A DNA stretch of 24,000 nucleotides from Thermococcus guaymasensis DSM 11113. GTDB lineage: Archaea > Methanobacteriota_B > Thermococci > Thermococcales > Thermococcaceae. The stretch spans positions 932,388-956,387 of the forward strand of contig NZ_CP007140.1 in NCBI RefSeq assembly GCF_000816105.1, read 5' to 3'. The position numbers and the translations under genes are program-made. The notes under the pieces are model-generated. The model ran no database searches. It worked only from the letters and a program-made list of their open reading frames with translations, and was not told the DNA's origin. The number at the start of each line of letters is the position of its first letter. Within the stretch, counting starts at the first letter, position 1. Shown here piece by piece: positions 5,277 to 17,539 of the stretch.

Positions 5277-5314
5277 ACTTGAGGGAACTTCCGAGTGGGA
5301 GTGGCCACCCCAAC

Positions 5315-5368
5315 GTGATGAACACTCTCGAACCTGACCCAAGGGATGATGACCGGATTCCTGGCTGA
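5315..5368 (+). ncRNA. C/D box sRNA (2'-O-methylation guide), dual guide
   Basis: The architecture is textbook. C box GTGATGA is at 5315-5321, followed by the 12-nt guide ACACTCTCGAAC and D' CTGA at 5334-5337. An 8-nt spacer precedes C' ATGATGA at 5346-5352, the 12-nt guide CCGGATTCCTGG, and D CTGA at 5365-5368. It is intergenic. The true ends probably extend a few nt beyond the boxes. Confidence 0.85.
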
Positions 5369-5376
5369 TGCATCAA

Positions 5377-5384
5377 CTTTAAAA
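5377..5384 (+). promoter_or_regulatory. TATA box CTTTAAAA for the ABC permease (leaderless geometry)
   Basis: The box ends 23 nt upstream of the ATG at 5407 and there is no SD in between. Confidence 0.5.
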
Positions 5385-9860: not shown

Positions 9861-10036
9861 GAGTCCCGCACTATTGGGTGGAGCCCCCGAACAGGGGGCG
9901 AAACACCCGGGCGCCAAGACGGCGGCGTCGGGGGGAAAGGGTGCAAAGCACCCAACGATGAACCCCGCCCTCCAGCCCGGGTTACAAAAAGGTGCGCTCC
10001 CGAGGAAACGCCGAAAGGCGGACCCCTCGGGGGTAA

Positions 10037-10123: not shown

Positions 10124-11612
<1,489 letters not shown>

Positions 11613-11623
11613 ATCGCCGGAAA

Positions 11624-11658
11624 CCCGTCCGGGGGGTTTAAGGGATGTCGGGCCTGCC
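11624..11658 (+). other. 3' arm of the pre-16S processing stem
   Basis: Complement of 10037-10071, as described for the 5' arm. Confidence 0.8.
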
Positions 11659-11664
11659 ATCAGT

Positions 11665-11741
11665 GGGCCGGTAGCTCAGCCTGGGAGAGCGCCGGCTTTG
11701 CAAGCCGGAGGCCCCGGGTTCGAATCCCGGCCGGTCCACCA
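11665..11741 (+). tRNA. tRNA-Ala (anticodon UGC), CCA encoded, no intron
   Basis: It folds by hand into a cloverleaf. The acceptor GGGCCGG/CCGGTCC has the G3:U70 alanine identity pair. The anticodon loop is CTTTGCAAG and the T-arm is CCGGGTTCGAATCCCGG. It sits in the 16S-23S spacer. Confidence 0.97.
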
Positions 11742-11811
11742 CGAAGAGGTGCACATCCCGAGCCCAGCTCGGGGTGGAAGGGCCTGAGACCCCGAACAGG
11801 GGTCACAATGA

Positions 11812-11854
11812 GGGCCGTGCATAGGCGAGCTGGTCCAGAAAACGTCCCGCCCGG
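11812..11854 (+). other. 5' arm of the pre-23S processing stem (canonical bulge-helix-bulge)
   Basis: Positions 11812-11835 pair with 14891-14914 (24 bp, one G:U). The central helix CAGA (11836-11839) pairs with TCTG (14884-14887). The bulges are AAA (11840-11842) and AGA (14888-14890). The inner helix 11843-11854 pairs with 14872-14883 (12 bp). Confidence 0.85.
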
Positions 11855-14871
<3,017 letters not shown>

Positions 14872-14914
14872 CCGGGCGGGACGTCTGAGAGACCAGCTCG
14901 CCTATGTACGGCCC
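14872..14914 (+). other. 3' arm of the pre-23S processing stem
   Basis: Complement of 11812-11854, as described for the 5' arm. Confidence 0.85.
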
Positions 14915-15055
14915 TTGTATGGCTCATTACCGTTGCCTTTTCTGAAAAACTTAAAATTTGATCATGATTCATCATTTCAGAAACCTCAAAGATTTGCCAA
15001 GATTATGGTCTAAGTCGTTGAGTTCTTATCTTTTCATGCAATTCTCTGCCAAAAA

Positions 15056-15063
15056 CTTTAAAA
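15056..15063 (+). promoter_or_regulatory. TATA box CTTTAAAA, the only TATA-like element upstream of trpS
   Basis: It is preceded by the A-rich GCCAAAAA and is the identical 8-mer to the permease TATA at 5377-5384. It ends 24 nt before the ATG at 15087. Confidence 0.5.
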
Positions 15064-15086
15064 CCCCCACATTCTCATTTTTCTCC

Positions 15087-15116
15087 ATGTTCGGTGGTTG
15101 CTTTTGGCCTTGGTGA
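15087..15116 (+). CDS. Candidate leaderless leader mini-ORF MFGGCFWPW (9 codons plus TGA)
   Basis: ATG TTC GGT GGT TGC TTT TGG CCT TGG TGA, read directly from the sequence. It sits at the predicted transcription start of the trpS mRNA. Expression is not proven. Confidence 0.35.
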   Translation: MFGGCFWPW

Positions 15117-15181
15117 TGTCCCGCTCTTCTGCACCGCCTTAGCTTTGAGTTTTGTTTCCACTGGAAATGGAGGTGCTTTGA

Positions 15182-16333
15182 ATGGACGACTTTAAGGTCA
15201 CCCCATGGGACGTTGAGGGTCTGGTGGACTACGACAGGCTGATAGAGGAGTTTGGAACGAGCCCGCTGACCGACGAACTGCTGGAAAAGACTGCAAGGCT
15301 CACGAAGAGCGAACTGCCGATATTTTTCAGGAGGAGGTTCTTTTTCTCCCACAGAGACTACGATAAAATCCTGGCCGATTACGAGAGCGGGAAGGGGTTC
15401 TTCCTCTACACCGGCAGGGGCCCGAGCGGGCCGATGCACATAGGCCACATCATTCCGTTCTTCGCAACCAAATGGCTCCAGGAGAAGTTCGGCGTCAACC
15501 TCTACATCCAGATAACCGACGACGAGAAGTTCTTCTTCAAAGACCTTGCCCTCGACGACACCAAGCGCTGGGCCCACGAGAATATACTCGACATCATAGC
15601 CGTCGGCTTCGACCCGAACAAGACCTTCATCTTCCAGGACAGTGAGTTCACGAAGATTTACGAGATGGCCCTCCCGATAGCGAAGAAGATAAACTACTCG
15701 ATGGCCAAAGCTGTCTTTGGCTTCAACGAGCAGAGCAAGATTGGAATGATTTTCTACCCTGCCATACAGGCCGCACCGACCTTCTTCGAGAAGAAGCGCT
15801 GTTTAATTCCCGCCGCCATAGACCAGGATCCCTACTGGCGCCTGCAGAGAGACTTTGCCGAGAGCCTCGGCTACTACAAGACCGCCGCACTCCACTCGAA
15901 GTTCGTTCCGCCGCTGACGGGCCTTGAGGGGAAGATGAGCGCGTCCAAACCCGAGACGGCCGTCTATTTGACGGACGACCCGGAGGAGGCGGGCAAGAAA
16001 ATCTGGAAGTTCGCTTTAACTGGAGGTCAGCCAACGCTCAAGGAGCAGAGAGAAAAAGGTGGAAACCCAGAGAAGTGCGTCGTCTTCAAGTGGCTGGAGA
16101 TTTTCTTCGAGGAGGACGACAAGAAGCTCATGGAGCGCTATCATGCGTGTAAGGCCGGAGAGCTTACCTGCGGTGAGTGCAAGCGCTACCTCATCAAGAA
16201 GGTTCAGGCCTTCCTGAAGGAGCACCAGAAGAAGAGAAAGGAGGCCGAGAAGAAGGTGGAGAAGTTCAAATACACCGGTGAGCTGGCGAGGGAGCAGTGG
16301 GAGAAGGCGATTCCGGGGCCGTTGAAGAAGTGA
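15182..16333 (+). CDS. trpS: Tryptophanyl-tRNA synthetase, 383 aa
   Basis: Class I signatures PMHIGH (HIGH) and KMSASKP (KMSKS), archaeal/eukaryal-type TrpRS length, and SD GGAGGTG at 15169-15175. Confidence 0.95.
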   Translation: MDDFKVTPWDVEGLVDYDRLIEEFGTSPLTDELLEKTARLTKSELPIFFRRRFFFSHRDYDKILADYESGKGFFLYTGRGPSGPMHIGHIIPFFATKWLQEKFGVNLYIQITDDEKFFFKDLALDDTKRWAHENILDIIAVGFDPNKTFIFQDSEFTKIYEMALPIAKKINYSMAKAVFGFNEQSKIGMIFYPAIQAAPTFFEKKRCLIPAAIDQDPYWRLQRDFAESLGYYKTAALHSKFVPPLTGLEGKMSASKPETAVYLTDDPEEAGKKIWKFALTGGQPTLKEQREKGGNPEKCVVFKWLEIFFEEDDKKLMERYHACKAGELTCGECKRYLIKKVQAFLKEHQKKRKEAEKKVEKFKYTGELAREQWEKAIPGPLKK

Positions 16334-17481: not shown

Positions 17482-17539
17482 CCGGGATGATGTGAGGGTA
17501 GGTAGCTGAGCCGTGATGAGCTAATCGGCCCCTGACCGG
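17482..17539 (+). ncRNA. C/D box sRNA (2'-O-methylation guide), dual guide, with terminal CCGG/CCGG stem
   Basis: A CCGG stem half is at 17482-17485. The variant C box ATGATGT is at 17487-17493, followed by the guide GAGGGTAGGTAG (12 nt) and D' CTGA at 17506-17509. A 3-nt spacer precedes C' GTGATGA at 17513-17519, the guide GCTAATCGGCCC (12 nt), and D CTGA at 17532-17535. The CCGG stem partner is at 17536-17539. It is intergenic. Confidence 0.85.

Follow-up and report, generated by a model that had tools for sequence, protein, structure and literature searches.

We analyzed the leader of trpS, the gene of tryptophanyl-tRNA synthetase (TrpRS), in a 24,000-nucleotide stretch of Thermococcus guaymasensis DSM 11113 (contig NZ_CP007140.1, positions 932,388 to 956,387 of the forward strand), hereafter called the window. 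The features of this leader suggest a programmed +1 frameshift switch that senses Trp-tRNA and is coupled to the translation of trpS, a reading to which we give a probability of about 0.68. The initial annotation of the window had noticed a leaderless mini open reading frame (ORF) with Trp codons upstream of trpS and had proposed a ribosome-sensed attenuator. When we re-read the window from 14700 to 15500, it agreed with that annotation in every coordinate and sequence, and sensing of Trp-tRNA at a codon is likely still the best reading of the leader. In contrast, the terminator and the anti-Shine-Dalgarno segment that an attenuator would use were not supported, and the conserved features fit a programmed +1 frameshift, which had not been considered.

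In the proposed mechanism, ribosomes would initiate at the 5'-terminal AUG (15087) of a leaderless nine-codon ORF, hereafter ORF0. Six codons in, peptidyl-tRNA-Phe would sit on UUU (15102-15104) with UGG (15105-15107) in the A site, and GGUGGU(UG), 3 nt upstream of the slip codon, could pair with the 3' end of 16S rRNA. With Trp-tRNA-Trp plentiful, UGG would be read, ORF0 would end at UGA (15114-15116) and the ribosome would come off 65 nt before trpS. In Archaea, coupling by termination and re-initiation depends on ORFs that overlap or lie very close together (PMC6728339, PMC10666635), so this gap should be too long for re-initiation. With Trp-tRNA-Trp scarce, through low TrpRS activity or low tryptophan, the A site would stay empty, the P-site tRNA would re-pair one nucleotide on (UUU_U to U_UUU) and GGC would be read next. 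Translation in the +1 frame (15106-15195) would then span the whole leader and stop at TAA (15193-15195) over the trpS start, where the terminated ribosome would re-initiate at AUG 15182, which is preceded by a Shine-Dalgarno (SD) sequence. In lineages where the +1 frame is fused to TrpRS, the shifted ribosome would directly make the enzyme. TrpRS output would rise when its own product is limiting, a negative feedback as in bacterial release factor 2 (RF2). A ribosome following RNA polymerase through the leader might, in addition, protect the transcript from premature termination. We infer the shift itself, its dependence on Trp-tRNA and the re-initiation from the architecture of the cassette described below, its conservation, its frame relations and a start site mapped in an ortholog.

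The start of the transcript was examined by comparison with a mapped relative. In the window, the TATA box CTTTAAAA (15056-15063) is followed after 23 nt by ATG 15087, which opens the codons ATG TTC GGT GGT TGC TTT TGG CCT TGG TGA. The box lies 178 nt past the end of the 23S rRNA (14878), and no other gene's promoter precedes it; the same 8-mer is also present at 5377-5384, ahead of ATG 5407. An alignment of 16 Thermococcales leaders showed AAAACTTTAAA to be an invariant promoter stretch, and the TATA-to-ATG gap was 22-24 nt in the 43 unique Thermococcales cassettes. Differential RNA sequencing (dRNA-seq) of T. onnurineus placed the sole primary transcription start site (TSS) of TON_1666 (TU0927) at 1530491, 95 nt ahead of the start codon (Cho et al. 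2017, Supplementary Table 2; PMC5316973). Since the ORF0 ATG of T. onnurineus also lies exactly 95 nt before the trpS ATG, the A of this mini-ORF ATG is the first nucleotide of the transcript. The window aligned without gaps with its relatives between TATA box and ATG and, by homology with T. onnurineus, its transcript should start at 15087. The leaderless character proposed for the mini-ORF is thus borne out in this ortholog, where the start is not downstream of the mini-ORF ATG.

To describe the conservation of the element, 80 trpS loci from species-representative genomes were fetched and their upstream regions compared; L-numbers (e.g., L014) denote archaeal loci, and the Thermococcales leader set contained neither Pyrococcus nor T. 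barophilus (P0008). A core pattern, GG[GT]G[AG]N-NNN-YTTTGG, counted without reference to reading frame, was found ahead of trpS in 34 of the 83 usable archaeal loci, when 0.085 were expected from shuffled upstream regions. In the window, the core GGTGRYNNNYTTTGG occurs once (0.02 expected). All Thermococcus loci shared one layout, in which AAAACTTTAAAT is followed after about 23 nt by ATG NNN GGTG(A/G)T NNN TTT TGG and a stop 2-4 codons further on (3 codons after the first UGG in the window). The motif was also observed upstream of trpS, or overlapping it, in distant loci whose TrpRS is just 56-79% identical and which are labelled Korarchaeota or Thermoproteota, Caldarchaeum or Aigarchaeota, Nitrososphaerota and Methanodesulfokora. 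Isolates with completely sequenced genomes carry it as well (T. kodakarensis KOD1, TK1874; T. onnurineus NA1, TON_1666; T. celer; Palaeococcus pacificus), which indicates that it is not an assembly artefact. A metagenome scan returned 70 matches, of which 33 were further Thermococcales cassettes, each followed by trpS, and 37 were chance matches inside unrelated coding sequences. Upstream of trpS, T. celer and T. onnurineus have a succinyl-CoA synthetase gene, and KOD1 has an AF2212-like gene; since these neighbors differ among Thermococcales, the cassette travels with trpS and not with its surroundings. Overall, the Trp-codon mini-ORF before trpS is real; its conservation spans several archaeal phyla and every Thermococcales leader examined.

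The cassette is tied to a reading frame. Each of the 34 cassette loci has an in-frame ATG, and in each a 0-frame stop follows UGG after 1-10 codons. Among the 17 loci outside Thermococcales, an ATG within 11 codons upstream was found in frame 0 in all 17, in frame +1 in two and in frame +2 in none. The distance from motif to ATG varied from 15 to 30 nt and was always a multiple of 3. This bears on the possibility that the motif is a DNA-level operator, a transcription-factor site just downstream of the start. The motif does lie at +7 to +22 of the promoter, and a position downstream of the start is common for archaeal repressors. In addition, a conserved palindrome, TTTCCACTGGAAA (15155-15167), is present further downstream in one Thermococcus subgroup. 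The cassette motif itself, however, is not palindromic, it keeps a strict frame relation both to the ATG and to trpS, and SD-led starts precede it by a good distance in several lineages; we regard an operator as hardly credible.

Within the cassette, the constraint was observed at the level of nucleotides. The SD-like element is GGTGAT or GGTGGT in all 43 unique Thermococcales cassettes. The 3' end of the 16S rRNA in the window reads GAUCACCUCCU, and GGUGAU is the exact complement of AUCACC within it; the spacer codon is mostly YGY in Thermococcales, and its YG extends the possible 16S pairing to 8 bp. The distance from the SD-like element to the slip codon was exactly 3 nt in every cassette found. 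The slippery site (TTT_T at 15102-15105 in the window) is part of a YTTT that was invariant in the 34 loci and in the 43 unique Thermococcales cassettes, and the base 3' of TGG was C in 41 of these 43. Both Trp codons of the mini-ORF had been pointed out initially; the first (15105-15107) is invariant and the second (15111-15113) exists only in part of the Thermococcales. Many Thermococcales ORF0 read UUU UGG CUU UGG UGA, where two potential shift sites in succession would give access to one +1 frame; in the window, CCU and not CUU stands ahead of the second UGG. Transcriptional slippage was considered as well and was ruled out, the T-run at the slip site being only 3-4 nt long.

Translated, these cassettes share an apparent peptide consensus across several phyla, M-x-G-[GD]-x-[FL]-W, as would be expected if a nascent peptide stalled the ribosome on free tryptophan in the manner of TnaC. 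A TnaC-like sensor conserves amino acids independently of codon choice, and this was not what we observed, TTT, CTT and GGT being fixed. Codon 2 and the codon before Phe/Leu were free to vary, and the first Gly was encoded by GGT or GGG only. Phe was always TTT and Leu always CTT, although within trpS itself TTC accounts for 44-100% of the Phe codons at these loci; the expected TTT frequencies, multiplied over 16 lineage representatives, give about 1e-11. Moreover, the peptides MVDRLW (L075), MGDRLW (L023, L062), MGEYLW (L157) and MGGHVW (L158) break the consensus and still keep GAUC or GGUG, and UU_UGG. Only 6-7 residues would have been made at the Trp codon, and a peptide sensor leaves the relations of the +1 frame unexplained. 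We consider it highly improbable. The conserved entity is a nucleotide cassette, neither a peptide nor an attenuator hairpin.

Two of these loci deserve a description of their own. The cassette of L158 (1-60) is a GUU_UGG_C variant encoding MGGHVWQE and a stop, with an ATG in the +1 frame too. In L157 (1440-1520), the +1-frame start of TrpRS is annotated at a non-canonical ATC within the cassette (P0120).

The frame into which the ribosome would shift was open in all arrangements. In a fused type, comprising at least 14 loci of Korarchaeota, Caldarchaeales and Nitrososphaerota (L014-L019, L023, L028, L037, L043, L062, L075, L157 and L158), the +1 frame coincides with that of TrpRS and continues for more than 350 codons without a stop. 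Three Korarchaeota-like loci (L014, L016 and L019, at about 2450-2500) may allow both modes: the +1 frame enters TrpRS, and an internal SD, GAAGGAGGG, with an ATG 9-13 codons past the shift site could start a shorter TrpRS; length differences among the three are whole codons. In the separate type, to which the window belongs, the +1 frame does not encode TrpRS; in the window it ends 14 nt inside trpS, which is in another frame. There, the +1 frame was free of stops and the 0 and +2 frames always contained stops (41/41 distinct Thermococcales leaders, window included). An in-frame UUG start in the +2 frame was ruled out, that frame always closing early. Six distances from the slip site to the trpS SD were observed, each divisible by 3 (48, 51, 54, 57, 60 and 63 nt). 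The +1 stop fell 0-17 nt beyond the trpS start in 45 Thermococcales leaders, with UGAAUG in T. kodakarensis, and the invariant SD GGAGGTG lay inside the +1 ORF, a layout of termination-reinitiation that supplies the closeness which archaeal coupling needs. A separate arrangement was also observed in L020 (UGAUG overlap), L056, L057, L061, L067, L074 and L159. The column entropy of the +1 leader ORF was 0.72, 0.76 and 0.68 at the three codon positions; the lack of a third-position excess indicates that this ORF is kept open without conservation of its peptide, and an open but unconserved ORF is what one that conveys ribosomes would be expected to look like.

The cassette was also found before a gene other than trpS. 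On two vent metagenome contigs (L111, 280-329, minus strand, Ga0190363_1008073; L150, 4372-4420, Ga0116200_10010115), a TATA box is followed by ATG AAA GGT GGT CTC TTT TGG GAG AGA TGA, encoding MKGGLFWER. The +1 ORF that follows has at least 93 codons, with weak winged-helix matches to Penicillinase_R (E = 6e-4) and TrmB (E = 4e-3), both below the cut-off. The position of the cassette ahead of a winged-helix-like ORF suggests that it is a device able to move between genes and not the N-terminus of a protein. A second GGTGATTGTTTTTGGCC is present in the frame of this +1 ORF, just before the contig end. The tRNA upstream of the L111 cassette is not a tRNA-Trp; it contains an intron and is probably a Thr(UGU) tRNA.

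An open +1 frame would fit equally well if ribosomes initiated in it directly, with no frameshift, at the GUG of GGUG (15094), 7 nt from the 5' end. In that case the 33-codon ORF 15094-15195, or the fused TrpRS, would be translated, and ORF0 would be a decoy or an accident. All GGTG-type cassettes have this GTG in the +1 frame, the window ORF exists, and fused-type database proteins are annotated in this way (VVHFGGEEEF..., MNIFGS...), most of their starts being called from the GTG of GGTG; these starts may be wrong. Two JGI hot-spring loci, L155 and L156 (1470-1520), also speak for it: they carry a degenerate cassette, ATTGGTGGTAGCGTTTGTGG, with neither ATG nor TGG, and a TATA box 23 nt before the GTG that opens TrpRS (VVAFVEDF...), an apparently leaderless start. 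The switch may have been lost in their lineage, or they may hint at its origin. On the other hand, two loci, L062 (Ca. Methanodesulfokora washburnensis) and L075 (Conexivisphaera), offer no ATG, GTG or TTG in the TrpRS frame from the upstream stop to the conserved TPWEV motif, and in both the frame-0 ATG has leaderless or SD-led geometry. More generally, the frame-0 ATG of the 17 distant loci has its own SD or leaderless TATA geometry, and the mapped TSS falls on the A of the ATG, an ideal leaderless start. Direct initiation leaves unexplained why TTT is never TTC, why the 0-frame UGG is invariant and why a 0-frame stop is always close. It also needs one N-terminal motif to be carried by TrpRS, by an unconserved leader peptide and by an unrelated winged-helix ORF. 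We hold direct initiation, the main rival of the frameshift, to be unlikely.

The attenuator layout proposed at first, in which stalling at Trp codons would refold the leader through anti-SD:SD pairing or a T-tract terminator, was analyzed separately. The proposed anti-SD GCACCGCC is indeed complementary to GGAGGTGC (15169-15176) at 7/8 positions, and the minimum-energy fold of the window pairs CACCGCC with the trpS SD. ORF0 and its Trp codon are conserved, and close relatives that have GGTGGT also have ACCGCC; the signal for pairing between ACCGCC and the SD-like element was weak (12/500 shuffles as high). However, GCACCGCC was conserved in close relatives only; T. celer, T. onnurineus, L003, Palaeococcus and the T. 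paralvinellae group have unrelated sequence in its place, with the SD still invariant. No covariation between anti-SD and SD was detected (71.6% paired vs. 70.8% in shuffles; 171/500 shuffles as high). The leader was no more stable than its shuffles (-29.8 vs. -28.65 kcal/mol, z = -0.33). The trpS SD was not sequestered in 45 leaders and was, if anything, more open than in shuffles, its unpaired probability being 0.32 vs. 0.24 in shuffles at 37 °C and 0.52 vs. 0.44 at 75 °C.

The T-tract TTTTGTTT is located where the initial annotation had placed it, but an unbroken run of T is not conserved there: most relatives have TTTCGTTT or TTTGGTTT instead, and others lack the tract. T. celer, T. onnurineus, Palaeococcus and the T. 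paralvinellae group are without the T-run, and a scan for sigma-70 promoters and terminators found no terminator-like site. The region 14850-15300 had no Rfam match even at E <= 1, T-box included, and the whole-window Rfam search returned only rRNA, tRNA-Ala and snoRNA-like RNAs, leaving the leader empty. In many lineages the mini-ORF overlaps the trpS start, which leaves no room for a terminator or antiterminator, and fused lineages have no spacer at all. Of the features of a trpL-type attenuator, we observed the short leader ORF with a cognate codon (an invariant Trp codon, translation being predicted), and we observed neither mutually exclusive structures nor an oligo-T terminator. Attenuation also leaves the always-open +1 frame and the constraints on the slippery site unexplained. 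Taken together, these results make classical leader-peptide attenuation very unlikely.

We then compared the proposed frameshift with known recoding sites. The +1 site of bacterial RF2 (prfB) reads AGGGGG-UAU-CUU_UGA_C, in which CUU_U is highly conserved, UUU_U occurs in a minority and the C after UGA is conserved (Atkins et al. 2016, PMC5009743). The archaeal cassette resembles it in its short ORF0, in an SD-like element exactly 3 nt before the P-site codon (PMC5009743), in a P-site CUU (or UUU, as in a minority of prfB species) followed by U, and in the C after the A-site codon. The slippery codon, the SD-like element at 3 nt and the short ORF0 are all present in the window. Decoding of the A site would depend in both on the gene's own product, with the logic of negative feedback; UGG is invariant upstream of trpS, and its rate-limiting decoding is a prediction. 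The main product is encoded in the +1 frame in the fused archaeal lineages, as in prfB, but not in the window, where as in other Thermococcales the +1 frame would only carry the ribosome to a separate trpS start. The sensor also differs, being the sense codon UGG and not a stop, the regulated gene is an aminoacyl-tRNA synthetase gene and the host is archaeal. In addition, the archaeal ORF0 is leaderless with only six codons before the shift, and the 16S pairing would involve AUCACC, not CCUCC.

The heptamer form CUU_NGG_C is shared with the yeast Ty1/ABP140 site CUU_AGG_C (PMC5009743), where peptidyl-tRNA-Leu slips from CUU to UUN while a slow sense codon waits in the A site (PMC5009743). In Ty1, however, that codon is slow from a rare tRNA, which gives a fixed ratio with no feedback on the charging enzyme, and the site is eukaryotic and lacks an SD-like stimulator. 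The separate type is also similar to the ermC leader, in which a shift in the leader ORF, by reading into the spacer, switches on the downstream gene (PMC5009743). The ermC trigger is an antibiotic (ketolide) and unfolds an SD-sequestering hairpin, whereas the trpS leader has no detectable sequestering structure. The +1 ORF ending on the trpS start suggests re-initiation, unlike ermC. As with trpL and pheST leaders and T-boxes, output would be coupled to the charging of the cognate tRNA, and, as in leader peptides, the ribosome would read it at cognate codons. The trpS leader differs in having a single sensing codon, no terminator or antiterminator and no Rfam match, and its read-out would be a change of reading frame rather than RNA refolding. 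Finally, the separate type has the geometry of archaeal termination-reinitiation pairs, with the upstream stop at the downstream start (UGAAUG or 8-17 nt overlap) and the SD within the upstream ORF; the upstream ORF would be reachable only by frameshifting, making the coupling conditional.

Several points weigh against a frameshift switch. Our literature search found neither Thermococcus ribosome profiling nor proteomic data on a trans-frame product. The SD-like GGUG holds a +1-frame GUG in most cassettes, making direct initiation conceivable, and gene callers annotate the fused TrpRS from that GUG or from AUC. The strong, unsequestered trpS SD could allow TrpRS to be made without any shift, and several +1 ORFs contain UGG themselves. 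The 16S pairing register, AUCACC, differs from the CCUCC of prfB, and the geometry with YUU in the P site resembles normal initiation spacing, which leaves the mechanical effect of the SD-like element uncertain. Wyosine-type modifications at position 37 of archaeal tRNA-Phe generally oppose slippage. The degenerate cassettes of L155 and L156 belong here as well.

Even with these points, we find it reasonably probable that at least four archaeal lineages (Thermococcales, Korarchaeota, Caldarchaeales/Aigarchaeota and Nitrososphaerota including Conexivisphaera) control TrpRS by a programmed +1 frameshift at a hungry Trp codon. To our knowledge, how Archaea match synthetase levels to tRNA charging is essentially unknown; we know of no archaeal T-box and of no leader-peptide attenuator established in Archaea. 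A 2021 review of archaeal recoding lists one cellular frameshift, of the -1 type in fucA1, with suggestions for viruses and Mg-chelatase, and does not treat tryptophan or trpS (PMC8211752). The 2016 compendium reports no known hungry-codon frameshifting for a trans-frame product and does not mention TrpRS or trpS (PMC5009743). Our search of the full-text literature, whose coverage left out most subscription journals, turned up no account of an archaeal frameshift or leader ORF at trpS. What we describe is probably an RF2/Ty1-type +1 frameshift with a sense codon as sensor, a synthetase as target, an archaeal host, a leaderless ORF0 and a coupled, non-fused version.

If true, Archaea would have their first case of cellular +1 recoding, and it would be the first frameshift in nature by which the supply of an aminoacyl-tRNA is sensed and fed back on the enzyme that charges it; in function, the switch would be the archaeal equivalent of T-box and attenuation control. 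The cassette would be modular, given the winged-helix regulator gene behind it in two vent metagenome contigs, and SD-like elements would be shown to act on elongating archaeal ribosomes. Annotated TrpRS starts (GTG or ATC inside the cassette) would have to be corrected in many genomes. The cassette would also represent a compact sensor of Trp-tRNA charging, testable in the genetically tractable T. kodakarensis (TK1874), and similar cassettes before other synthetase genes would be worth seeking.

The coordinates of the features are presented in Table 1.

Table 1. Features of the trpS leader in the window (BRE, transcription factor B recognition element).
Feature	Positions	Strand	Basis or remark
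BRE-like CAAAAA (A-rich) and TATA box CTTTAAAA	15050-15063	+	Promoter; alignment of 16 Thermococcales leaders
Predicted transcription start, A of the ORF0 ATG (leaderless)	15087	+	Homology to T. onnurineus
ORF0, mini-ORF MFGGCFWPW and stop	15087-15116	+	Predicted to be translated; in-frame ATG and nearby stop conserved
Internal SD-like element GGTGGT(TG)	15093-15100	+	Complementary to the 16S rRNA 3' end ...CGAUCACCUCCU
3-nt spacer TGC, proposed E-site codon at the shift	15099-15101	+	Constant spacing
Proposed shift heptamer UUU_UGG_C (P-site UUU, A-site UGG, then C)	15102-15108	+	Conservation
+1-frame ORF after the proposed shift, GLGDVPLFCTALALSFVSTGNGGALNGRL and stop	15106-15195	+	TAA ends 14 nt past the trpS start
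Second Trp codon and ORF0 stop (TGG TGA)	15111-15116	+	Second Trp in part of Thermococcales
Anti-SD GCACCGCC of the initial annotation	15131-15138	+	Not conserved; close relatives only
T-tract TTTTGTTT of the initial annotation	15150-15157	+	Not conserved as an uninterrupted T-run
trpS Shine-Dalgarno GGAGGTG	15169-15175	+	Invariant in alignment; not preferentially base-paired
trpS, tryptophanyl-tRNA synthetase, 383 aa	15182-16333	+	ATG at 15182; homology

The TrpRS of the window is 92% identical to its nearest database protein and matches P. horikoshii TrpRS (PDB 3jxe) with E = 6e-229. Directly upstream of the leader, on the same strand, lies a 16S-tRNA(Ala)-23S operon (10124-14878); read-through from it would yield a version of ORF0 that is not leaderless. 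The palindrome TTTCCACTGGAAA is perfect and is located just ahead of the trpS SD. The high-GC Thermococcus subgroup (L001-L004, L010, T. celer, KOD1 and T. onnurineus) keeps it nearly unchanged, and it is absent from the T. paralvinellae group and Palaeococcus; its UUUCC could pair with GGAAA or with the GGAGG of the SD. The guide RNAs found with Rfam are the H/ACA RNA Pab19 (9883-9986), directly upstream of the 16S rRNA, the C/D-box sR5 (5312-5369), just ahead of the TATA box at 5377, and the C/D-box sR36 (17483-17537), downstream of the gene that follows trpS.

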